DNA of 64,000 bases from an uncultured Methanomicrobiaceae archaeon (GCA_963826525.1 CAWGXH010000004.1:672001-736000); one strand, 5' to 3'. Positions 5,126 through 28,223 are shown, counted from the stretch's first letter. Notes: generated by a model from the sequence alone, not told the origin. Made by a program: numbers and translations.

Positions 5126-6866
5126 TCAGCAGCCCCGCGGCGTGGAGGGATGGCCATCGGCCGGTTGTAAGGTCAGGACGAACTCCGACACATCCTCACA
5201 CTCTCTGCATTTCAGGTTCGCACCACAGAGCGCAAAGCCCCGCCGGAAGAGGCGCAGCGCACCCTCCGTCTCCGGGACGGGGATCCGGCATCCGGAGTAG
5301 GCGATCCCGATGCGGACACCGGCATCGTCAAGCCCGGTCGCAACCCGGATCTTCCGAACGCCTCCCGAAGCCAGGTGTTCAAGGAGGGCAGCGACGGCAT
5401 CGAAGAGCCGTTCCGGCTCCGCCAGGGCAGGAGGGAGGGGGTCGTGCAGGACGAGGTCGAGGCGGACGTCCTCGAAGAGCGGGAGGTAGGCAAGCCTTGA
5501 GACCAGCGCCTCCCGGTATGCCGCTTCGTCGTCGGCGGCCTCGATAAAGGCCTCGTCCGGGATCGGCGGGCTACAGAGATGCGCAACCAGTGCTCCTCGA
5601 GCAGCGGATTGACAGCGACCCGGGAGAGGGGCTCGTCCATCCCGTACCCGAAGACCGTATTCATAAAATCCGAGAGGAGACGCTCTGTTCGCCGGAGGAG
5701 CGAGGTGTCGACGATATGGTCGAGCCGGTCCTGCTCGAAGAGCGCTCCTATCCGTTGCGTGATCTGCACCGCTTTGAGCACGAGCTGGATCTCTATCTTG
5801 CTGCCTTCTGCAAACTCCGCGACGAACGCAGTGAAGTCAGCCAGGAACTCATCGATACGGTCGGCCTCGATGAGGTTCTGGTACTTCTCCGCCTCCTCTG
5901 CCTCCCCGAGCTCCTCGAGGGTATAGGCGAGCATGTAGAGCCTGCCCGCGATGACGGAGAAGAGCCTGCCCGCTTCGCCGAGGAGATCGATTGCGTGCTC
6001 CCGGGAGGTACCCGGAGGCGATCGGGGGTGAAGGCTCCGATATCCGTCATCTCGGCCGCTTCCCGCTGCAGATTCTCGCAGAGCCTGACGACCGTTGCCG
6101 GCGCCACTGCCCGGCCGTGCCCGGAGCAGCAGAGAGTGAACGGCTTGTTCCGAAGGAGCCAGCAGAGGCGCTCTATCGATGCAGCGAGCGCAGCGGGATC
6201 CCACCCGGCACACCCGGCAATTCCGGGGCCTGTCGAGAAGAGGAGGTCGCTCGTGAAGAGGAACTCGCCGATACCGATACAGATGCTGTCGGGCGTGTGC
6301 CCGGGGGTGTGGTAGACCTCAAGCGCTTCACCGCTGCCGAGTGTGAGGATCTGCCGGTCGAGAAAGATCCCGCCACCGATCGGGATCGAGTCCGTCGAAA
6401 GCGAGATACCGGGATCGATCGTCCACCTGCCCTCGGCCGCCCGGTCGCGGGCGGTGAGCAGGTGGATATCGACGGTACGCGGGAGCATCTCCCAGTGGAA
6501 CATCTCCGCAAGGGTCCTGACCGTATCGCCGCGCTCGAGCGCCCGGGCGCCCTCTTCCTGGGCGGCTATCCGGAAGGGAGCAATCGTACCGAGCTCCGTA
6601 TCCCGGATAACGGCAAGGCAGTGATCGAGGTGGCAGTGCGTCAGAAGGAGGAGAACCGGCCGTGGCCGCGCCGCCACCTCCGCCCGCACCGTCGCGACGA
6701 TCTCCGCCATCTGCCCAGGATCGGCACCGGTATCTATCAGCAGGATCTCGGAAGACGTCCGTATGATATAGGCATTCGAGCAGCAGACGTCGGGTTTGCG
6801 TGTCAGGGGGTAGATCTCGGCGCCGACGCTCCCGGGGATCGGCTGCCACTGCTGGTTTTCAAGCAC
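5126..6866 (-). CDS. MBL-fold metallo-hydrolase fused to a helical region and a degenerate HATPase-like domain (frameshifts near 6010 and 5575)
   Basis: THCHLDH, TPGHTPD and SGHG MBL motifs. Continues in the 5212..6213 frame, then a third frame (EAFIEAADD...LPPALAEPERLFDAVAALL...VRIGIAYSG...FALCGANL) to TGA at 5126. Confidence 0.75.
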
Positions 6867-10447: not shown

Positions 10448-11965
10448 TCAGGGGGTAAGCGCCCAGGCAGGCAGTTCGACCGACGGGATCCCGAGCGCCC
10501 ACATGACCACGGTGAAGAGGAAGGACGTCAAGAGCGCGACCCCGATGATATCGAGCACCCATCCCGAGCGCAGGAGGTCGCCTGATCCGAGGTAGCCGCT
10601 CCCGTAGGCGATGGCGTTCGGGGGGGTCGCCACCGGGAGCATAAACGCAAGCGACGAACAGACCGCCGCGGTGATCATCAGCAGGTAAGGGTTCACCCCC
10701 ATACTGACGGCGGTCACCGCCATGATCGGCATCAGGACGGCAGCCATTGCGGTGTTCGATGCGATCTCCGTCGCGAGCGAGACGCCGATAGCCACAATCA
10801 GGACCACGAGGATCAGCGGGAGGCCGTTGAAGAGGGTGAGCCACTTCACGATCTCGGCGGCAAGCCCGCTCTTGATGAACGCATTCGAGAGCGCGATGCC
10901 GCCGCCGAAGAGGATAAGAATACCCCACGGGATCTTCACCGCCCACTTCCAGTCCATCGTGAAGATCCCCTTCTTCGCATTGACGGGGAGGACGAAGAGA
11001 AGGAACGCCCCTGCAATCGCGATGGTGGAGTCGTGGATACCGGGGAAGAGCATATCAAGCCCGGGGATGGTGAAGTCCCCGATATGTTTCGTCGTTTCGA
11101 AGATCCATGCAAGAGCGGTCAGGACGAAGATGATGAGCGTCCATACCTCACCCGTCGACATCGCCCCCATCTTTTCAAGCTCGATCGCGATGACGCCTTT
11201 CGCCTCGGGAAGGGTTTTGGTCATGCCCCGGTACGGGACGTAGGTGAGCCAGAGCCAGGCCAGGATGAGGAATATGGCGGCGAAGGGGACACCGAACTTC
11301 ATCCAGGAGAAGAAGTCGACCGTCGGGGCGTCGGGAAAGAGCGTCTCGACCTGTGCAAGGAAGATGCCGTTCGGCGGTGTCCCGATAAGCGTGGCGATAC
11401 CCCCGATACTCGCCGCATAGGGGATCGAGATGATGAGGCATTTGGCGAGGGAGCCCTGCTCTTCGGTGAGGTTCTCGAGTTTCTTGTTCGTCTCGGGGAT
11501 GATGGTGATAATGATGGCGACGGCGATCGGGATCATCATCATGGCGGTGGCGGTATTCGAGATCCACATCGAGAGGAACGCGGTGGCGACCATGAACCCG
11601 AGGACCAGCCGTTTCGGGCTCGTCCCGACAACCTTGATGATATGCAGGGCCATACGCCGGTGCAATCCCCAACGCTGCATGGACATGGCGATAATGAAGC
11701 CGCCGAGGAAGAGGAAGATGACCTTATCGCCGTACGACGTCGCCGCCTCCGTCGGTGTGAGAACGCCGAGCAGCGGAAAGAGTGCCAGCGGCAAGAGGGC
11801 GGTCGCCTCGAGCGGAATGACGGCGGTGACCCAGAGCAGCACCATCAGGACGGTCACCGCGGTCACGTAACGCGCCTCCACCGGCATCACGGACGGATCG
11901 ATCGGCGCAAAGAGGATTGCAAGAAAGACCAGCAGTGATGCAGCAAGGAGGGCGACTTTGTTCAT
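10448..11965 (-). CDS. SLC13/DASS family Na+:dicarboxylate/sulfate symporter
   Basis: LSMWISNTATAMMM, IGTPPN, SNTA and AFMLPVATPPNAI signatures; start placed at MNKVA. Confidence 0.95.
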   Translation of the reverse strand: MNKVALLAASLLVFLAILFAPIDPSVMPVEARYVTAVTVLMVLLWVTAVIPLEATALLPLALFPLLGVLTPTEAATSYGDKVIFLFLGGFIIAMSMQRWGLHRRMALHIIKVVGTSPKRLVLGFMVATAFLSMWISNTATAMMMIPIAVAIIITIIPETNKKLENLTEEQGSLAKCLIISIPYAASIGGIATLIGTPPNGIFLAQVETLFPDAPTVDFFSWMKFGVPFAAIFLILAWLWLTYVPYRGMTKTLPEAKGVIAIELEKMGAMSTGEVWTLIIFVLTALAWIFETTKHIGDFTIPGLDMLFPGIHDSTIAIAGAFLLFVLPVNAKKGIFTMDWKWAVKIPWGILILFGGGIALSNAFIKSGLAAEIVKWLTLFNGLPLILVVLIVAIGVSLATEIASNTAMAAVLMPIMAVTAVSMGVNPYLLMITAAVCSSLAFMLPVATPPNAIAYGSGYLGSGDLLRSGWVLDIIGVALLTSFLFTVVMWALGIPSVELPAWALTP

Positions 11966-12219
11966 CCGGAAAAACTGGGCTGGTGAATTATTTAAGCATA
12001 CGGAAACGCAGCAGAACCCAGGACCTCGAAAAGAGTGAAGGCTAATCCGTGTTTTCCATGCAAGACGCTCCTCCCGCCCATACTGCGGAGCCGGTCCGTA
12101 TCGCCGATCTCTCTTCGGATCCGAACCTGCGACGCGCTGTCGTCGGCTCTGTCGCTTCACGAGCGAAACTGACCGGGATTCGATGCATATATACAGGTGG
12201 AGAAGTGAATACGTCCATT

Positions 12220-13608: not shown

Positions 13609-13983
13609 TCAGTCGGCCTCGTCGGAACGGATCGTCCTTCCCCTGCCGGGCGAGGTCTCGACGAAGACCTCGTCCATACTCATGTAGATCGGAAAGACCT
13701 CGTGAACCCCGGCAAGCGTGAACACCTTGTAAACGTCGGCGTTCGGTGCACAGAGGGCCATCTCGCCCTCTTCGCGTTTGAGTCCCTTGAACTTGGCCAG
13801 CAATACCCGTAGACCGCTGCTGCTCATGTAGACCGCTTTTTCAAGGTTGACCAGCACCTTCTTCTTTCCCCGCCCGATGACACCCGTCAAGGCTTCGTCA
13901 AGTCCTTCGGCCGACGCGGCATCGATCCTTCCTTCGACCGTGACGATCGTTGCACCGTCCTGCTCACGAATATCCACATCCAT
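13609..13983 (-). CDS. STAS-domain protein (anti-sigma factor antagonist, RsbV/SpoIIAA-like)
   Basis: VEGRIDAASA...VNLEKAVYMSSSGLRVLL...VFTLAG. Confidence 0.92.
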   Translation of the reverse strand: MDVDIREQDGATIVTVEGRIDAASAEGLDEALTGVIGRGKKKVLVNLEKAVYMSSSGLRVLLAKFKGLKREEGEMALCAPNADVYKVFTLAGVHEVFPIYMSMDEVFVETSPGRGRTIRSDEAD

Positions 13984-14186
13984 AACTACCGGATCTCCCC
14001 ACGCGGAAGACGGAAAATCGTCCCCACGATGTATACCATCACGTGTGTGCCGCTGCAATAAAATCGTGTGCCTTCCGGAAGGTACAGCACGCTGCCGCAC
14101 CGCTTCCCCCCAATGAGTTCGGAAATCTTCGAAGTTAAAGAAATATACTTACCTTGAGAGCGATAACGTCTCTTCTGTCGATGCAT

Positions 14187-19528: not shown

Positions 19529-22483
19529 ATGATTTCGGGTACTGCATGTTGACGACGAGCCCGCACTCCTCGATATTACCAGCCTGTTCCTCGAGAGAAA
19601 TAAAGAAATTACCGTTGAGGTAAGCACATCTGCCGAAGAGGCGCTTCTGATGCTCACGACCCGTCGGTTCGACGTCATCGTATCCGATTACGAGATGCCC
19701 CTGATGAACGGGATAGAGTTTTTAAAGCACCTCAAAGCGCAGGGCAACGATACCCCGTTCATCATCTTCACCGGAAGAGGGCGAGAGCATGTCATCATCG
19801 AGGCACTCAACAACGGCGCGTCGTTCTACCTCCAGAAAGGCGGCGACCCGAAGTCCCAGTTTGCCGAACTGAGACACATGATCGAGCAGGCCGTCGAACG
19901 GAAGAGAATGGATGAGGCTCTCAAGGCAAGTGAGGAGCGCTACCGCGCCGTCGTCGAGAGCCAGACGGAGCTTATCTGCAGGTTCCACCCCGATGGAACC
20001 CTCGTCTTTGCGAACGATGCCTTCTGCCGCTACTACGGCAGGGAGAAATGCACCGGGTTCATCGGCAAACGTTTCTTCCCGAAGATCCCCGCCGAAGAGC
20101 GGGATCTAATCAGGAGAGCACTTCTCGTCCCTGACGCTCGATTCTCCGGTCGGGACTGTCGAGCACCGCGTTCTCATGCCGGACGGCACGACCCGGTGGC
20201 AGCAGTGGAGCGACCGGGCGCTCTTTGACGAGGAGAAGCAGGTCACCGAGTTTCAGTCGGTAGGAAGAGACATAACTGACCGGAAACTCGCTGAAGAAGC
20301 CCTGAAAGAGTCGGAGACGAAGTTCAAGGTTCTCGCCGAAAAATCGCTCGTCGGCGTGTATATCGTCAGGAACGGGGTCTTTACCTATGTCAACCCCCGG
20401 TTTGCCCGTATCTTCGGCTACCGGGTCGACGAGATGGTCGGGAGGATCGGGTTTGACGACCTCACCCTCCCGGACGATCTCCCCATCGTTCAGGAGAGGA
20501 TCCGGAAGATCTCCGGCGAGCAGGACTATCCGCACTTCGAGTTCCGCGGTGTCCGGAGAGACGGCGAGGTGATCACCCTCGAGGTCTACGGGTCGGAAAC
20601 CGCTATCCAGGGTACCCGGGGAATCATCGGGACGCTCCTTGACATCTCCGACCGGAAGAAGATGGAAGTCTCCCTAAAAGAGAAGGTCAACTACGTCCAG
20701 GCGCTGATGGACACCATTCCGGCGCCGGTCTTCTACCGCGACACCGATGGGATCTACCAGGACTGCAACCGCGCCTTCGAGGAACTCGTCGGTCTTCCGA
20801 AGGAGGAGATCATCGGAAAGACAATCCACTACTTCTTCCCGAAGGAGTACGCCGACATCTACAAAGAGAAGGACAACCTCATCATCAGCCATCCGCATAT
20901 CCAGCGCTACGAGTTCGCCATCACCGACGCCCGGGGAGCCGTTCACGACGTTCTCTTCTCAAAGACCGCTCTCTTCAGGGCGGACGGGGGCGTCGGCGGG
21001 ATCGTCGGTGCGATCCTCGACATCTCGGACCGGAAGAAGATGGAGGTCTCCCTAAAAGAGAAGGTCAACTACGTCCAGGCGCTGATGGATACCATTCCGG
21101 CCCCCGTCTTCTACCGCGACACCGATGGGATCTACCAGGACTGCAACCGCGCCTTCGAGGAACTCGTCAGGTCTTCCGAAGGCAGAGATCATCGGAAAGA
21201 CTATCTGGGACTTCTTCCCGAAGTTCTACGCCGACCACTACAAGCACAAGGATGACCTGATCATCGAGCACCCCCACGTCCAGCGCTACGAGTTCGAGCT
21301 CCAGAATACCCGGGGCGAGAAGTCCGATGTTCTCTTCTCAAAGACCGCCCTCTTCCGGGCTGACGGGAGCATCGCCGGGATCGTCGGCGTCATCATGGAC
21401 ATCTCCGACCGGAAGAAGATGGAGAAGGCGCTCCGGGAGAGCGAAGAGAAATTCCGGACGCTGGCCGACTTCACCTACGACTGGGAGTCCTGGCTCGGGC
21501 CTGAAGGGAACTACCTCTATGTCTCGCCTTCGTGCGAACGGATCACCGGGTATGCCGCAGAAGAGTTCCTCGCCGATCCCCACCTGACCGAGAAGATCAC
21601 CTATCCCGGAGATCAGGCGATGGTGGCACACCACTACAACGAGGTCTGGAAGACGAGCGACAGAGTGCACCATCTGGACTTCCGGATCGTCACGCCCGGC
21701 GGGGAGACCCGCTGGATCAGCCACTACTGCCAGCCGGTCTACCACGACGACGGGAGCTGGTTCGGCCGCCGTGAGAACAAGCGGGACATCACTCACCGGA
21801 AGGTCGTGGAAGAGGCGCTCCAGCAGGCAAACCGGAAGTTAAACCTCCTCTCCAGCGTCACCCGCCACGACGTCCTCAACCAGCTCACCGCGCTTGCAGG
21901 CTACCTCGAGCTTGCGAAGGATTACGTCGCCGATCCGTTCTTCTTCGAGATGATCGAGAAGGCAGATCTTGCCACCGACACCATCAGGCACCAGATCACC
22001 TTCACCAAGGACTACCAGGATATCGGTGTCCACACCCCGACGTGGCAGAACCTGAACGCGGTGGTGGAGAAGACGGCAGCCATCCGGAGCGCCGGGGCCG
22101 ACGTCTCGATAGCGGCGGATTTCGCCTCTTTAGAGATCTACGCCGACCCGCTCCTCCAGAAGGTCTTCTCAAATCTCCTCGATAACACAGCGAGGCACAG
22201 CGGCAGCGTCAGCAGAATTACATTCTCGTCGTCGGAGTCGGACGAAGGCTTAACGCTTGTCTGCGAAGACGACGGGGTCGGGATTCCCGAGACGGAGAAA
22301 GGCCGGATATTCGAGCGGGGCAGGGGACGAAACACCGGATACGGCCTCTTCCTTGCGCAGGAGATCCTCTCCATCACCGGGCTTTCCATCAGGGAGACCG
22401 GAGTGCCGGGAAGCGGAGCCCGGTTCGAGATCCAGGTCCCACGGGGTGCATACCGGTTCACTGCCGGAAACAGTACCGGCTGA
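19529..22483 (+). CDS. Hybrid sensor kinase REC-(PAS)n-HisKA-HATPase (frameshifts near 19538, 20118, 21170)
   Basis: MIS(V)LHVDDEP...VSDYEMP...FTGRG receiver; five PAS modules; H-box TRHDVLNQL, N-box NLLDN, DDGVG, GYGLFL. Confidence 0.88.
20641..21425 (+). repeat. Tandem 378-bp internal duplication of a PAS/PAC module
   Basis: gacatctc(c/g)gaccggaagaagatgga recurs at 20641, 21019 and 21398; the first ~150 bp of copies 1 and 2 are nearly identical. Confidence 0.9.
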
Positions 22484-22627: not shown

Positions 22628-24340
22628 GTGCCGCAGAAACCACAAAACCTCGTTTACGGAGTTGAGGATGCACTCCCGCTCCCAACCGCGCTGCTGCTCG
22701 GGCTGCAGCATATCTTCGTGATGTCTACGGCGTTCATATTTCCGGTCGTCATCGTCAGGAGCTTTGGCGGAACTGCCGAAGAGGCCGCTTTCATGGTCAC
22801 CATGTCCATTCTCGCGGGCGGTGTCGGGACGATTCTCCAGGCGCTCCGAAGAGGAGGCATGGGCTCGGGGTATCTCTGCCCGGCGGTCTGCGGGCCGTCG
22901 TACCTCTCCGCATCGCTCCTCGCGGCGCAGACCGGAGGGCTCCCGCTCGTCTACGGCATGACGGCAGTCGCCGGTCTCTTCGAGGTCTTCTTCTCCCGGC
23001 TCATGCACCGTCTGCGCGTCCTGTTTCCCGCCGAGGTCACCGGGGTCGTCGTCGCCCTCGTCGGTATTGCCGTTATCCCGGTAGCAGTCCCGAACTTCCT
23101 CGGGATAACACCGGGAGATAGCGTAACCGAGGCACTCGAACTGCTCGTCGCGGGAGTCACCCTCGGAACGATGGTCGCGATAAGCGTCTGGAGCAGGGGA
23201 AAACTCCGCCTCTACTCGGTTCTTATCGGTATCGCCGTCGGATATATCATCGCTGCCGCAACCGGCATCCTCGGCGGGGCGGAGATCGCGAGGATACTGG
23301 ATGCACCCCTTGTCGCATTCCCCGACCTCAGCCACCTCGGGTGGTCGTTCGATGCAGCCCTGCTCATTCCCTTCATCATCGCCATCCTCTGCTCGTCCTT
23401 AAAGTCCATCGGCGATCTGACGACCTGCCAGAAGATCAACGACACCGACTGGAAACGGCCCGATATGCGGAACATCGGCGGCGGCATTCTTGCGGACGGC
23501 TCTTCGGCGCTCTTTTCCGGTCTCGTGGGCGGGATGGGGCAGTCGACCTCCTCAAGCAACGTCGGACTCTCTGTCGGCACCGGCGCTACCAGCAGGGTAA
23601 TCGCCTTTGCCGCAGGCGCTCTCCTCATTGTGCTGACGTTCTTTCCGAAACTGGCATCAGTCTTCGTCATTATGCCCGCACCCATCATGGGGGCAGGGCT
23701 CGTCTTTGTCGCCGCATTCATGATCGTCAACGGGCTGCAGATCATTATGTCCCGGATGATGGATACGCGAAAGACCTTTGTTATCGGGTTCGCGTTCATC
23801 TTCGGCCTCTCGGTCGACATCTTCCCGGATTACTTCATTGGTCTTCCCGCATCGGTGCAGCCCATCTTCAGCTCGTCGCTCGCCCTCGGAACCGCCACGG
23901 CACTCATACTAAACCTCATCTTCCGAATCGGGATTGCGCGGCGGAAAACACTGTTCTTCGAACCCGGCACCGACTTCTCGGGTACGATCTTCTCGTTCTT
24001 CGAGGCGATGGGGGGCACCTGGGGTGCCCGCACAGAGGTGATCCAGCGCGCCAAGTCAGCGGTAAGCGAGTGTATTGAGGCGATCCTCTTCCTTGGGATG
24101 ACCCGGGAGACGGTCCGGGCCGATATCGCATTCGAGGAGGATTCCCTCGATATCGATATCACATACCACGGAAAACCGCTCGACCTCTCGACCGGGGGGG
24201 CTCCCACCGATACCGACCTCCTCGAAGACGAGAACGCCCTCGCCCGACTTTCTGCATTCCTGATCCGAAAGTACGCGGATACGGTCACCACGGACTTCCG
24301 GGACGGCGAGTGTCGGATCAGGCTGCACTTCGATCACTGA
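22628..24340 (+). CDS. NCS2 (xanthine/uracil) family permease with C-terminal RsbW-like degenerate HATPase domain
   Basis: LLGLQH TM1 motif, GILADG, SSSNVGL-V-TG-TSR signature; about 130 extra soluble residues at the C-terminus. Confidence 0.88.
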   Translation: MPQKPQNLVYGVEDALPLPTALLLGLQHIFVMSTAFIFPVVIVRSFGGTAEEAAFMVTMSILAGGVGTILQALRRGGMGSGYLCPAVCGPSYLSASLLAAQTGGLPLVYGMTAVAGLFEVFFSRLMHRLRVLFPAEVTGVVVALVGIAVIPVAVPNFLGITPGDSVTEALELLVAGVTLGTMVAISVWSRGKLRLYSVLIGIAVGYIIAAATGILGGAEIARILDAPLVAFPDLSHLGWSFDAALLIPFIIAILCSSLKSIGDLTTCQKINDTDWKRPDMRNIGGGILADGSSALFSGLVGGMGQSTSSSNVGLSVGTGATSRVIAFAAGALLIVLTFFPKLASVFVIMPAPIMGAGLVFVAAFMIVNGLQIIMSRMMDTRKTFVIGFAFIFGLSVDIFPDYFIGLPASVQPIFSSSLALGTATALILNLIFRIGIARRKTLFFEPGTDFSGTIFSFFEAMGGTWGARTEVIQRAKSAVSECIEAILFLGMTRETVRADIAFEEDSLDIDITYHGKPLDLSTGGAPTDTDLLEDENALARLSAFLIRKYADTVTTDFRDGECRIRLHFDH

Positions 24341-24397
24341 TACCCTGCGGTGATGAAAGTAAAAGCCTATCTAGCCACGGAGCAAACCATCAGTTGA

Positions 24398-24832
24398 ATG
24401 AGCGGGAATCTGGAGATCACCGAACGGCATGAAGCAGGTGTTGCTATCGTCTCCCTGAAAGGGAGGCTGGACGCCGCATCGAGTCAGGTAGCAGAGCAGC
24501 GGATGAACGGGCTGATCGATGCAGGAAACGGGTCGATCCTGGTCAATCTATCAGGCCTCGATTATATCAGCAGTTCGGGCTTGCGGGTGCTGCTCGCCTC
24601 GTTAAAGCGGCTGAAGAAGACCGGCGGGAACCTCCGCCTCGCGGAGCCGAAACCTGCGGTCAAGGATGTCTTCACCATGGCGGGCTTCCACCGGATCTTC
24701 ACCATCCACGACGATGAGGCATCAGCACTGAACGGCTTTACCACGGAAATCCTGAACCGGCCGACGCCACCACCGGAAGATCCAGCATGGCATCGACACT
24801 CACCGACCTCTCCTTCATCCTCCTCCAGATGA
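24398..24832 (+). CDS. STAS-domain anti-sigma factor antagonist (RsbV/SpoIIAA-like)
   Basis: LKGRLDAASS...VNLSGLDYISSSGLRVLL...VFTMAGF, with the phospho-acceptor Ser motif. Confidence 0.93.
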   Translation: MSGNLEITERHEAGVAIVSLKGRLDAASSQVAEQRMNGLIDAGNGSILVNLSGLDYISSSGLRVLLASLKRLKKTGGNLRLAEPKPAVKDVFTMAGFHRIFTIHDDEASALNGFTTEILNRPTPPPEDPAWHRHSPTSPSSSSR

Positions 24833-26151
24833 TCTGCGTCATCGTGGTGATCGCCTACCTGATCACCAGGAGCGGGGCGTTCACCGAGATCCTCGATAAG
24901 ACGTTCACCTGGAAGAATCAGGCAATTCTCATCCTCGTCTTCGGCGCCATCTCGATCTACGGGACCGAGAGCGGTGTCGATATCATGGGCGCCGTCATCA
25001 ACGTCCGCGACCTTGGCCCCATGGTCGGTGGGCTCGCCGCAGGGCCTGTCGTCGGCCTCGGCGCCGGCCTTATCGGCGGCGCGTACCGGGCGACGCTCGA
25101 CGGGTTTACGGTCGTTCCCTGTGTGCTGGCCACCATCCTTGCCGGAGTTTTCGGCGGCACGATATATCTCCTGAATAAACGCAATTTTATCGGAGCGCAG
25201 GGTGCCATCCTCTTTGCCGTGGGGATGGAGTCGCTCCACATGGGGCTTGTCCTCGTCATCTGCCGGCCGTTCGAACAAGCCTTGAGTATCGTCGAGCAGG
25301 TGGCCTTCCCGATGATCCTCGCCAACGCCGCCGGGATCTTCATCTTCGCCTTCATCATCGGCAACCTGATCACCGAACGGCAGACGAAGGCGGAGCGGGA
25401 CTCGTACTTCTCCGAGCTCGAGCGGAAACGTGCCGAGCTGCAGATCGCCCGGGATATCCAGATGAGTTTTCTGCCCGAGAAACTCCCTCGCATACCCGCA
25501 TACGACCTCGCGGCAATGAGCCTTCCGGCAAAAGAGGTCGGCGGCGACTTCTACGATGCCATCCCGCTCCCGGACGAGCGGCTCGGGATCGTCATGGCGG
25601 ACGTCTCGGGGAAGGGTGTCCCCGCCGCCCTCTTCATGGCGCTCTCGCGGACGGTCGTGCGTGCCCACGCCCGGCACAGCGGGGCAAAGGACGCCATCCG
25701 GGACGCGAATATCCTCATCGCGGAGGATTCGAAATCAGGGATGTTCGTTACCCTCTTCTACGGCGTCGTCGATGCGGCACGACTGACGATGACCTACGTC
25801 AACGCCGGGCACAACCCCCCCATGCTCTTCCGGGGAGACGGCGAGCCGCGGGAGCTGAAAGCGACCGGGATCATCCTCGGGGTGATGGACGACGCCGAGT
25901 ACGAAGAGCGGACGGTCGACCTCGCAGGCGGCGATCTGCTGCTCCTCTACACCGACGGCGTGACCGAGGCGATCAACCCGGAGGAGGAGCAGTTCGGGGA
26001 AGAGAGGCTGATCGCCACCGTGCAGGAGTACCGGCACCTCCCCTCAAACGAGATCGTCGAACGGATACAGCAGGCGGTCTTCGCCTTCTGCGGACGTGAA
26101 CCACAGTTCGACGACCTGACGCTGATGGTGCTGAAGGTGAACGGCCCATGA
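24787..26151 (+). CDS. LytS/YhcK 5TM receptor fused to SpoIIE/RsbU-type PP2C phosphatase
   Basis: SIYGT, NVRDLGP, GLIGGAYR sensor motifs; ELQIARDIQ, VGGDFYD, ADVSGKG, NAGHNPP, YTDGVTE, DDLT phosphatase motifs. Confidence 0.95.
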   Translation: MASTLTDLSFILLQMICVIVVIAYLITRSGAFTEILDKTFTWKNQAILILVFGAISIYGTESGVDIMGAVINVRDLGPMVGGLAAGPVVGLGAGLIGGAYRATLDGFTVVPCVLATILAGVFGGTIYLLNKRNFIGAQGAILFAVGMESLHMGLVLVICRPFEQALSIVEQVAFPMILANAAGIFIFAFIIGNLITERQTKAERDSYFSELERKRAELQIARDIQMSFLPEKLPRIPAYDLAAMSLPAKEVGGDFYDAIPLPDERLGIVMADVSGKGVPAALFMALSRTVVRAHARHSGAKDAIRDANILIAEDSKSGMFVTLFYGVVDAARLTMTYVNAGHNPPMLFRGDGEPRELKATGIILGVMDDAEYEERTVDLAGGDLLLLYTDGVTEAINPEEEQFGEERLIATVQEYRHLPSNEIVERIQQAVFAFCGREPQFDDLTLMVLKVNGP

Positions 26152-26576
26152 CGCTCTCTGCTGTACTCACCGTCCCGGCAGTGCTCGAGAATCTCTCGGT
26201 GATCGCCGGGTTCCTCGAAGCGACCCTGGAGGATGCCGGGTGCTCCGCCGAAACGCTCTTTGCCGTGCAGCTCGCGGTCGACGAGGCCTGCAGCAACACG
26301 ATCCTCTACGGCTACCCGACAGGAGACGCAGGCGAGATTACGATCACCTGCGAGATCGAGGCTGGAGAGGTCCGGGTGGCGCTCGCCGACGACGGCCGGG
26401 CATTCAACCCGCTCAACGCCCGCGAACCGGATCTGACTGCCGGACTTGAAGAGCGGAAGATCGGCGGGCTCGGGGTCCACTTTATCAAAAGTGTCATGGA
26501 TAGCGTCGCCTACGAATTTTCAGAAGGAAAGAACGTGCTCCTGCTCGTAAAAATCGCGTCTCCGACGGAAGAGTGA
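26148..26576 (+). CDS. RsbW/SpoIIAB-type serine kinase (anti-sigma factor-like ATP-binding protein)
   Basis: LAVDEACSN, DDGRAFNP, GGLGVHFI, VMD; ATGA overlap with the phosphatase gene. Confidence 0.95.
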   Translation: MTLSAVLTVPAVLENLSVIAGFLEATLEDAGCSAETLFAVQLAVDEACSNTILYGYPTGDAGEITITCEIEAGEVRVALADDGRAFNPLNAREPDLTAGLEERKIGGLGVHFIKSVMDSVAYEFSEGKNVLLLVKIASPTEE

Positions 26577-26582
26577 CCCGTA

Positions 26583-28064
26583 TCACCGGGACGCGAGTTT
26601 CAGCCGCACCAGAATCGCAGTGCCTGCCGCCGGGTTGCCCGGAACTCTATTCTCCGCCCGTATCTCTCCGTCGTAACGTTCCACGAGCATTCTGCTGATG
26701 TAGAGGCCAAGGCCGCTGCCCGGCTCTCTGCTCTCGCCCCGCTCGAAGCGGTTGAAGACCGCATCCTTCAACGGATCGGGGATACCGGGGCCAGTGTCCC
26801 CTACGGTGACGGCGACGCCGCCGTCCCGTTCCTCCACCCCGATGGTGATAGCGACATCGGCCCCCCCGAACTTGAGGGCGTTCCCAATGAGGTTTCCGAA
26901 GACCTCCGGGAGGAGATCGTCGGCCCAGACAGTCGCCGCCGTCCCCGCATACCGGACGAGCGCACCGGGATAATGACCGATCGCAGTTCGTATCGCGGCA
27001 TCGAGGCTTACCGGCCGGAGCCTGGCGTCCGGGTCGCGGAGGGAGCGGAGTCGGCTGACACCGGCGATAATAGCCGAGCTCTGCCCGATCCCCGCATGGA
27101 TGCGCCGCACGTACTCCCGCTCCGTATCGTCGGCAAGTTCCTCGAGCATCTCCGCATATCCGAGGGCAACGGCGTTGGCGTTGTTGATATCATGGATCAT
27201 GAGATCGAGGTAGAGGTTTGCCTCGCGGGAAGCTGCCTCCAGCCGTTCCTGGAGCATGGCCCGGGAGATAACTCCTCCCACCTCCTCACCGATCGCCTCA
27301 AGGGTACTCTTTTCAAGGTCGGTGAACCGATGGAAACTGCTGCTTGCTATGTGGATCGATCCGATGACCTTCCCCCCGATGGTGACCGGAATGCTCGCAA
27401 GCGAGAAGACCCCGAGCTCGCCGCACTCGTGGGCGACGTTGAGGTATTTTTCGGTATAGCAGCATTGCCCCTCGAGGAAGACCTCGCGGTAGTGGGAGGT
27501 GCAGATCTCCAGAGTGAGTACGTCCGGGAAGTAGAGGTCGTAGAGACCGAAGAACGCCTTCAGATCTGCACGTTTGAGCCGCGGATCGACAAGGTATACG
27601 GCGCCCGCGTCAAAGTCCATCAGCTCGACGGTCTGCTGCAGCACCGTCTGCAGAATCTCCCCCGACGCCATCGACGAGGCGCTCGCACGCATGATCCGGT
27701 TGATGATGGCGATCCGCCGGTTGCAGGATCGGATCTCCTCCTCCGCGCCGGCGGCGGGGGCGGTTCCCGTAATGGTGAGGAGAAGATGCCTCCCCTGCCC
27801 GCCCGGGGCCTCGGGGAAAGCACGTGCCTCGACCGCATACGTCTGCAGATCGCCCGTACTGTCCCTGCAGGAGACGGTATGATACCCCTCCCGGAGGTCT
27901 CCGTCACGTACTGCCCGGATCATCTCGTCCTTATTCCCCGGAAAGAGCAGATCCAGAGCGCGGTTTGCAAAGACCGGCCTGCCGGTATCGTCAAGGATCA
28001 GCACCGGGACGGCGAGCCTTCCGAGAGCCTCAAGCGGGTCGAACAGCAGCGTGGGATCGGTCAT
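26583..28064 (-). CDS. PAS-GAF sensor histidine kinase
   Basis: GAF (SIPV...VIGSI), H-box MIHDINN, NLIGNALKF, DTGPGI, GSGLGL. The ORF is open up to 28151. Confidence 0.9.
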   Translation of the reverse strand: MTDPTLLFDPLEALGRLAVPVLILDDTGRPVFANRALDLLFPGNKDEMIRAVRDGDLREGYHTVSCRDSTGDLQTYAVEARAFPEAPGGQGRHLLLTITGTAPAAGAEEEIRSCNRRIAIINRIMRASASSMASGEILQTVLQQTVELMDFDAGAVYLVDPRLKRADLKAFFGLYDLYFPDVLTLEICTSHYREVFLEGQCCYTEKYLNVAHECGELGVFSLASIPVTIGGKVIGSIHIASSSFHRFTDLEKSTLEAIGEEVGGVISRAMLQERLEAASREANLYLDLMIHDINNANAVALGYAEMLEELADDTEREYVRRIHAGIGQSSAIIAGVSRLRSLRDPDARLRPVSLDAAIRTAIGHYPGALVRYAGTAATVWADDLLPEVFGNLIGNALKFGGADVAITIGVEERDGGVAVTVGDTGPGIPDPLKDAVFNRFERGESREPGSGLGLYISRMLVERYDGEIRAENRVPGNPAAGTAILVRLKLASR

Positions 28065-28223
28065 GCCGGAGAGATGTTCGGCCTGATCCGCGAAATGCTT
28101 ATCTATAGACGTATCTCCACAGGAGACCGGATAGAATCGGAATAACGGCAATATCAGAGGTTCCCGGAAATCGCAACGATAATTAGATACCTTTTTTCAC
28201 ACGGAATACGATAGTTGCCTCAT

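Follow-up and report, generated by a model that had tools for sequence, protein, structure and literature searches.

In a 64,000-nucleotide (nt) stretch of DNA from an uncultured archaeon of the Methanomicrobiaceae (CAWGXH010000004.1:672001-736000; hereafter the window, whose positions serve as coordinates), a permease of the NCS2/NAT fold ends in what, by sequence and predicted structure, is an apparently dead homologue of the RsbW/SpoIIAB anti-sigma kinases. It is followed on the same strand by genes for a STAS protein, a sensor phosphatase and an intact RsbW-type kinase. We favour, with modest confidence, the reading that the ligand-controlled phosphatase and the ATP-dependent kinase set the phosphorylation state of STAS, and that unphosphorylated STAS docks on the pseudokinase tail of the permease and thereby alters transport. 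Such a switch would probably act directly on transport rather than on gene expression. STAS-controlled transport had been proposed in a first-pass annotation of the locus, and the computational checks that could be run on sequences and structural models support it. The window belongs to a Methanoculleus genome, and its permease has its closest named relative in M. taiwanensis (92% identity).

The four co-oriented open reading frames (ORFs) span 22628-26576 (+) and have the domains and spacing originally assigned to them. The permease gene (22628-24340 (+); 570 amino acids (aa), PF00860) comprises a transmembrane part (residues 1-430, 22628..23917 (+)) and a C-terminal tail, the proposed STAS docking site (residues 431-570 plus stop codon, 23918..24340 (+)). 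A spacer of 57 nt (24341..24397 (+)), containing the A-rich stretch GAAAGTAAAAGCC, separates it from the gene for a single-domain STAS protein of the anti-sigma-antagonist type (144 aa, 24398..24832 (+); PF01740, TIGR00377). The last three genes overlap. The STAS ORF shares 46 nt with that of a 5TM-LytS + SpoIIE/PP2C membrane sensor phosphatase (454 aa, 24787..26151 (+); PF07694, PF07228), which in turn shares 4 nt (ATGA) with the ORF of an RsbW/SpoIIAB-type serine kinase (142 aa, 26148..26576 (+); PF13581) with intact ATP-binding boxes. The ATG at 24787 is the real start of the phosphatase, because its N-terminus aligns with the first helix of Escherichia coli BtsS; the N-terminus of the permease, MPQKP, agrees with its homologues.

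The tail of the permease is matched by Pfam HATPase_c_2 below the cut-off of that family (E 0.0078, 16.7 bits against 27.4). Its relationship to RsbW is supported by profile comparisons: a hidden Markov model seeded with the neighbouring RsbW proteins recruited tails in the second round, and an hhalign comparison of 77 tails with 21 RsbW proteins gave a probability of 95.8% and an E-value of 7e-9 over 125 columns. The AlphaFold (AF2) model of the tail is of high quality (pLDDT 91.9, pTM 0.85), and in a Foldseek search with it the ten best PDB matches were all UsfX, SpoIIAB or RsbW (E 4.5e-6 to 2.3e-5), led by entries 8ih8, 1til and 6m37. TM-scores of the top matches were 0.58-0.71 when normalized by query length and 0.64-0.84 by target length. 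Collectively, the sequence comparisons and the model indicate that the tail is an RsbW homologue with the anti-sigma-kinase fold, as the first-pass annotation had recognized. A protein-cluster look-up with the tail led to unnamed clusters, with HATPase_c_2 annotated on 15% of the members of one and Xan_ur_permease on 19% of another.

The residues required for ATP binding are missing from all tails. The Asn position of the N-box is occupied by Ala (32), Ser (32) or other residues (13) and never by Asn (0/77), the Asp position of the G1 box by Tyr (73) or His (4) and never by Asp (0/77), and the G2 box is degenerate, its glycines being lost. Since no tail keeps the ATP-binding Asn or Asp, the domain appears to be a conserved pseudokinase, in agreement with the earlier proposal. 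By contrast with these losses, Glu51 and Glu54 are each retained in 74 of the 77 tails. We also considered that the tail might be kinase-competent at loci where a separate RsbW is not found nearby; this was ruled out, as none of the 13 tails at loci with only PP2C and STAS has the Asn or the Asp.

The three proteins encoded downstream have the features expected of an active partner-switching trio. The STAS protein matches PF01740 (E 2.5e-21) and, above the cut-off of 53.45 bits, TIGR00377 (86.7 bits). Its phospho-serine loop, annotated earlier as an SSSG phospho-site, is DYISSSG (in full DYISSSGLRV), and Ser58 and Ser59 are invariant in 46 of 46 STAS proteins encoded next to tail-bearing permeases. 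Past the end of the domain, the protein continues for about 30 Pro/Ser-rich residues into the phosphatase gene (24737-24832 (+)); M. frigidifontis has this extension as well (locus L016), and the syntenic STAS protein of locus L097 ends earlier, without overlap. The kinase (PF13581, E 8.5e-29, 100.6 bits) was described as intact, and indeed the N-box residues Glu46 and Asn50, Asp81 and Gly83 of G1 and the GGLG motif of G2 (Gly106-Gly109) are invariant in 21 of 21 homologues. The phosphatase combines a 5TM-LytS receptor domain (PF07694, E 8.7e-44, 149.5 bits, positions 4-167 of 169) with a SpoIIE output domain (PF07228, E 2.2e-52, 178 bits, positions 1-191 of 192), and its metal-binding Asp254, Asp272, Asp390, Asp442 and Asp443 are retained in 39-40 of 40 homologues. 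The output is of the SpoIIE/PP2C type and not a histidine kinase with a LytTR regulator.

No match to Sigma70_r2 was found in the genome of the window (87.6% complete) by a search that matched 10 of 10 bacterial controls. The first-pass annotation had described the locus as a sigma-factor-free system in an archaeon. This agrees with the search, but the system is not particular to archaea: the same combination occurs in many bacterial phyla. A scan of the same genome with HATPase_c_2 yielded a single strong match, the kinase of the window (100 bits), the next best scoring 36 bits. There are four STAS matches and two SpoIIE matches, one of the latter interrupted: this second SpoIIE gene (G000:C3:151177-151750) is matched in two pieces, contains one in-frame TGA and is possibly a pseudogene.

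Permeases with this tail are widespread. An exhaustive search with the tail recovered 438 representative clusters (50% identity) at E <= 0.001, of which 177 remained at E <= 1e-10. The match is always located at the extreme C-terminus, full-length proteins being ~565-596 aa long, and many shorter matches look like fragments. About ten stand-alone tail proteins of 112 aa were considered as well and rejected: the five inspected all begin at the conserved internal Met of F-M-E-x-Q-G and are regarded as gene-calling fragments. At the 78 loci described below, bacterial hosts belong to Thermodesulfobacteriota, Binatota, Acidobacteriota, Cloacimonadota, Bacteroidota, Bacillota, Armatimonadota, Chloroflexota and other phyla, and archaeal hosts include Methanothrix, Methanospirillum and Methanoculleus, among others.

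Co-occurrence of the tail-bearing permeases with the STAS/PP2C/RsbW module, a check named in the first-pass annotation, is borne out by their gene neighbourhoods. Sampling one genome per species, we collected 78 loci out of 260 relatives, nearly all covering permease residues 1-570, and searched every six-frame ORF within ~6 kb on each side with profiles of the STAS, PP2C and RsbW proteins of the window. At least one module gene was found at 45 of the 78 loci: all three at 23, PP2C and STAS at 14, and other combinations at 8. The five host genomes used for background, 2.6-6.4 Mb in size, have only 2-8 SpoIIE matches each, so that a random 13.7-kb stretch would hold one ~1-3% of the time. At 35 of the 45 linked loci, no more than 300 nt separate the permease from the closest module gene, and at 36 of the 45 all module genes are co-oriented with the permease. 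In a FastTree phylogeny of the 78 permeases, linked loci are scattered through all major clades and display differing gene orders, including permease-STAS-PP2C-RsbW, STAS-PP2C-RsbW-permease, fused PP2C-RsbW, and PP2C-permease with RsbW-STAS on the other strand. The 13 archaeal sequences group in a single clade with an SH-like support of 99; linkage is seen for 11. That linkage has been kept despite such rearrangement argues for a functional tie between the permease and the switch. Besides the module, clustering of the 785 neighbouring ORFs revealed no family at more than 8 loci, the family at 8 loci being a generic ABC ATPase. The association also extends to whole genomes: in a sample of the phylum comprising 251 genomes, the tail is matched in 8 and SpoIIE in 51, and SpoIIE is found in 8 of 8 tail-bearing genomes compared with 43 of 243 others, related genomes not being independent. 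In 6 of the 8, the SpoIIE and tail matches lie on the same contig, within ~6 kb of each other.

The binding of STAS to the tail, also suggested earlier, was addressed by one controlled complex prediction, in which the tail alignment was combined with the STAS alignment cut to residues 1-115. The interface score, ipSAE, was 0.65 (0.74, 0.64 and 0.65 in individual runs), and the best control reached 0.17. Among solved complexes, 116 of 157 attain this mark, as do 2 of 215 mismatched pairs; for a prediction made from our own alignments, this calibration is only rough. The runs agreed in at least 79% of contacts, and the partner pLDDT was at least 88. In the predicted complex, the tail makes contact through residues 50-55 and 108-118; STAS residues 58-60, the phospho-serine loop, contact tail residues 50-55, that is, the degenerate N-box helix with Glu51 and Glu54, and residues 111-115. 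The prediction supports binding of STAS to the tail without showing it.

These observations can be combined into the following scheme. The membrane phosphatase, with its 5TM-LytS and PP2C domains, would sense a ligand at or in the membrane and dephosphorylate STAS, and the RsbW kinase would rephosphorylate the conserved STAS serine using ATP. Unphosphorylated STAS could then bind either of two look-alike surfaces, the real kinase or the dead RsbW-like tail of the permease. Docking on the tail would modify transport; the sign of the effect is a guess, and we suppose activation, because SLC26 carriers depend on the STAS domain fused to them and may serve as an analogy. Phosphorylation of the serine would release STAS, for which the predicted complex offers a simple reason, because the phosphate would face the conserved Glu51 and Glu54 of the tail. 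In this way, an outside signal and the ATP state of the cell could switch the carrier on a time scale of seconds, without transcription. Phosphorylation dependence, the effect on transport, the sensing of a ligand and an anionic, non-nucleobase substrate (see below) are the parts of this scheme that we infer.

Several observations weigh against the scheme. Module genes are missing from 33 of the 78 loci, 12 of these 33 being short-flanked; where both flanks extend for 5 kb or more (41 loci), 20 loci are linked and 21 are not. At the 14 loci with PP2C and STAS, a kinase gene is not found nearby. The 57-nt spacer in front of the STAS gene may contain an internal or separate promoter. The score of the STAS-tail complex may partly reflect the solved SpoIIAA-SpoIIAB and RsbV-RsbW complexes, which have a like geometry. 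The sequence is compatible with either direction of signalling, the permease being the output or an input of the switch. Finally, four related methanogen genomes have the STAS/5TM-PP2C/RsbW module without a tail-bearing permease (loci L097, L098, L099 and L100 in genomes G188, G224, G125 and G047, respectively), and modules of this kind, with a 5TM-LytS-PP2C phosphatase and without the permease, are common in Methanomicrobiales.

The permease-free modules are informative about the history of the locus. The module of L097 is flanked by the same HTH-PAS and ribosome-biogenesis genes as that of the window; because this syntenic module lacks the permease, the module is older at this site than the permease. 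Moreover, since the tail-bearing permease is missing from all four of these module-bearing genomes, the module must have another target elsewhere, and the permease is one client rather than the only possible output. At L098, a 421-aa protein with an N-terminal STAS domain is encoded directly after the kinase. A candidate for a second client family is a metallo-beta-lactamase (MBL)-fold hydrolase of ~580 aa, which flanks the module at 5 of the 78 loci (L029, L032, L037, L038 and L041) and also at L098 (L098:3320-5077). Its last 205 residues are predicted to fold like the DHp and catalytic (CA) domains of histidine kinases (AF2 model from 5 sequences, pLDDT 71.3), with Foldseek matches to AdeS and HK853 (E ~2e-8). 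Compared with the RsbW and tail profiles, this C-terminus gave nothing in a single-sequence hhalign search and no significant match with a 16-row profile (E 0.018, probability 2.5%). On the strength of the model, the hydrolase may be a second client family of the module, and the occurrence, next to one and the same module, of two unrelated client families with degenerate GHKL ends hints at docking as a general principle. The window has its own copy of the hydrolase gene (5212-6866 (-)), matched in three frames (query residues 12-296, 296-416 and 432-554); either the gene is broken or the assembly is in error here.

The presence of the module in four genomes without the permease, which implies another target there, and the possible second client family would also fit the reverse arrangement, in which the permease is an input. 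It would then be a transceptor, its tail taking up STAS or letting it go depending on the transport cycle or on substrate load, and the output would pass from RsbW or STAS to another target. The predicted STAS-tail contact is compatible with either direction. However, 35 of the 38 phosphatases adjoining tail-bearing permeases already have a sensor domain of their own, so that a second input would be unneeded, no candidate downstream target is conserved at the permease loci, and the genome of the window has no match to a sigma factor. We therefore regard a role of the permease as input as unlikely, although it is the alternative that fares best. Less probable still is that the tail pairs with the RsbW kinase as a GHKL-type heterodimer, in the manner of the SpoIIAB homodimer, and tethers or inhibits the kinase, with STAS not on the tail at all. 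Tail and RsbW are homologous over their full length, and solved structures show related anti-sigma kinases as dimers or tetramers, to judge by the titles of 1til and 6m37, RsbW being described as a tetramer (PMC7340262). Yet PP2C and STAS occur without a nearby kinase at 14 of the 78 loci, six kinases are fused to the phosphatase, and in the complex prediction, whose runs agree closely, it is STAS that occupies the tail. It is similarly improbable that the genes are merely co-expressed, for example in a shared nutrient response, without direct contact and with the tail as a kinase-derived dimerization or stability domain: some half of the tail-bearing permeases have no module beside them, and the contact is a prediction from structural models. 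It would, however, be hard to put down to chance that a carrier ending in a dead RsbW copy recurrently adjoins exactly the binding partners of RsbW. In addition, the linkage persists in more than 10 phyla despite reshuffled gene order, and the tails retain Glu51 and Glu54, located at the predicted STAS interface, though catalysis has been lost.

If the permease is an output of the switch, the switch need not be confined to it. On other contigs, the genome of the window encodes two paralogues of the tail-bearing permease, both without an adjoining module; their tails share 58% and 55% identity with that of the window. One lies at G000:C5:341473-341898 (L095:6474-8198 (-)) and the other at G000:C3:657827-658246 (L096:4460-6247 (+)), the latter with an apparent frame break near residue 80. 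With three tail-bearing permeases and one kinase in the genome, one switch may serve three carriers. Immediately downstream of each of the three permease loci lies a convergent histidine kinase gene of the GAF or PAS type (26583-28151 (-) in the window, L095:5216-6385 and L096:6334-7470), and the unlinked paralogue of M. frigidifontis likewise has a convergent downstream histidine kinase (L027:7728-9905). Three of three loci in one genome is more than expected, though this genome is rich in kinases.

What the carrier transports can be approached from its binding pocket. The transmembrane part matches PF00860 over residues 21-396 (E 1.9e-54, 185 bits) and NF037981 above its cut-off (68.9 against 40 bits), and falls below the cut-offs of TIGR00801 (203.9 against 291.8 bits) and TIGR03173 (256 against 414 bits). 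Its sequence matches in the PDB are UapA, UraA and SLC23A1 (E 6e-17 to 4e-12). The Gln-His pair in transmembrane helix (TM) 1 of nucleobase carriers is present in 77 of the 78 permeases. In UraA, the substrate is bound by Glu241 in TM8 and Glu290, the signature Glu/Gln of TM10; the residue numbering was checked. The position equivalent to Glu241 is Lys259 in all 78 permeases, and that of Glu290 (Gln408 of UapA), position 310, is Ser in 56, Ala in 10, Thr in 10 and Gly in 2. The label 'xanthine permease' is doubtful, because the nucleobase-binding Glu is replaced by an invariant Lys. Judging from these substitutions, the substrate is probably not a nucleobase, and the conserved Lys in the pocket suggests an anionic one; the LytS and Cache sensors of the linked phosphatases and the hosts, which include acetoclastic Methanothrix, syntrophs and sulfate reducers, likewise suggest an anion. 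No purine or pyrimidine pathway was found among the neighbours of the tail-bearing permeases at the 78 loci. Three unlinked permeases of Bacteroidota (L040, L078 and L080) adjoin genes for acetyl-CoA synthetase, an MFS carrier and a Pat-like protein acetyltransferase, and an acetyl-CoA hydrolase/transferase gene adjoins another unlinked permease, L086. Such neighbours at a few unlinked loci are a suggestive hint of a carboxylate, too thin to be used.

The ligand of the phosphatase had been compared to that of BtsS, which binds pyruvate. Aligning the 5TM domain of the window with E. coli BtsS (from NC_000913) revealed that the pyruvate-site residues Arg72 (NVRD), Arg99 (AYR) and Cys110 (VPC) are retained, as had been suggested, but that Ser113 is replaced by Ala. 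According to PMC10653868, all four residues are needed in BtsS, and S113A reduces the affinity for pyruvate and abolishes induction. Moreover, since the equivalents of Arg72 and Arg99 are invariant in all nine 5TM domains aligned, the two Arg look like family features that do not name the ligand. Thus, the likeness to the BtsS site stands only in part, and the ligand is not identified by it. Across the 38 phosphatases adjoining tail-bearing permeases, the sensors are diverse: 5TM-LytS in 15, dCache_2 in 9, dCache_1/PDC in 3, HAMP only in 5, GAF in 2 and a receiver (REC) domain in 1, with none recognized in 3; six of the 38 phosphatases are fused to the kinase. The prevalence of membrane or extracytoplasmic sensors in these domain assignments fits an external ligand.

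Partner switching is the textbook mode of sigma-factor control in Gram-positive bacteria. The module of the window is built of the same three families, a PP2C/SpoIIE phosphatase, a STAS antagonist and a GHKL kinase, as RsbU/RsbV/RsbW-sigma B and SpoIIE/SpoIIAA/SpoIIAB-sigma F of Bacillus subtilis, and it is the kinases of these systems that the fold of the permease tail matches best. By contrast, here a sigma factor is not matched in the genome, the second surface predicted to bind STAS is a dead copy of the kinase on a membrane carrier, and the phosphatase is a LytS-type membrane receptor. Partner switches with outputs other than sigma factors exist, for example SiaA/SiaB/SiaC of Pseudomonas, which controls the cyclase SiaD. 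There, the trio likewise regulates an enzyme by protein contact, whereas the target proposed here is a secondary transporter with an RsbW-like domain of its own; SiaD is not known to have such a receiver domain. The SiaB-SiaC structure (6kko) was found at rank 24 in the Foldseek search with the tail.

Among transporters, a parallel is provided by the SLC26/SulP family, in which a STAS domain fused in cis at the C-terminus is located at the cytoplasmic face of the carrier. In our system, the fused domain is RsbW-like, whereas STAS is encoded by a separate gene and would dock reversibly under the control of a kinase and a phosphatase. According to PMC6497670, SLC23/NCS2, SLC26 and SLC4 share a transmembrane architecture of 7+7 inverted repeats. 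A stand-alone STAS protein acting on a transporter subunit, with a conserved Ser/Thr in the interface, is also found in the E. coli lipid transporter MlaFEDB; as described in PMC7367683, the ABC ATPase MlaF is bound by MlaB and regulated by it, and binding is weakened when the Thr at the equivalent interface position is replaced by a phosphomimetic residue. MlaF, however, is an ABC ATPase and not GHKL-like, and it belongs to another transporter class; a kinase or phosphatase is not known for MlaB. The BtsS/BtsR system of E. coli has the same 5TM-LytS domain (PF07694) in a LytS-type sensor coupled to a carrier, BtsT, but differs in having a histidine kinase rather than a PP2C output and in the Ser113 replaced by Ala here; the control proposed for the window would be post-translational rather than transcriptional. 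With UraA, UapA and XanQ, the permease shares the NCS2/NAT family by sequence and the TM1 Gln-His pair; it differs from them in the invariant Lys for the TM8 Glu, in Ser, Ala, Thr or Gly for the Glu/Gln of TM10 and in the extra cytoplasmic tail of 140 residues.

Full-text literature searches, whose coverage leaves out most subscription journals, returned neither an NCS2 or xanthine permease with an RsbW-like tail nor a partner switch acting on a secondary carrier. In its accessible text, a review of STAS-only proteins names transporters solely as SLC26/SulP (PMC8256260). The parts of the system and the Rsb/SpoIIA logic are known; what appears to be new, as far as these searches reach, is a secondary carrier with a fused dead anti-sigma-kinase domain that is systematically linked to STAS, PP2C and RsbW.

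The window contains further regulatory and transport genes outside this locus. Three overlapping ORFs at 19650-22483 (+), with REC-PAS, PAS-PAS-PAS and PAS-PAS-HATPase domains and a repeated block of ~50 residues, look as if a single large gene for a hybrid kinase had undergone an internal tandem duplication and been interrupted by frame breaks. At 13609-14100 (-), there is another STAS gene, an orphan (PF01740, E 2.2e-21), 1.4 kb from a gene for an SLC13/CitMHS-type carrier at 10448-12160 (-) (PF00939, E 1.8e-75).

A bolder generalization can be offered tentatively, as a possibility we hold to be rather less than even. Dead GHKL domains, whether RsbW- or histidine-kinase-like, may be portable STAS receivers that make any protein bearing them, such as NCS2-fold carriers or the MBL-fold hydrolase, a client of a partner switch, and partner switching might in that case regulate transport and metabolism post-translationally and quite generally, in archaea devoid of sigma factors as in many anaerobic bacteria. 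The carrier with docked STAS would be a trans-acting counterpart of SLC26, and it would move an organic anion sensed outside by LytS or Cache domains, not a nucleobase. If this is true, the long-known occurrence of STAS in both anion transporters and anti-sigma antagonists would gain a mechanistic bridge.

Even without this generalization, the tail-bearing permease offers a concrete and widespread candidate output for 'orphan' Rsb-like modules and for partner switching without sigma factors. If the proposed control of transport is true, it would represent a new mode of fast, signal- and energy-dependent regulation of secondary carriers and would give a function to many mis-annotated 'xanthine permeases' of syntrophs, sulfate reducers and acetoclastic methanogens. 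Furthermore, with its two small soluble domains, it would be a simple system for the communication between STAS and carriers of the 7+7 fold, relevant to the biology of SLC26.

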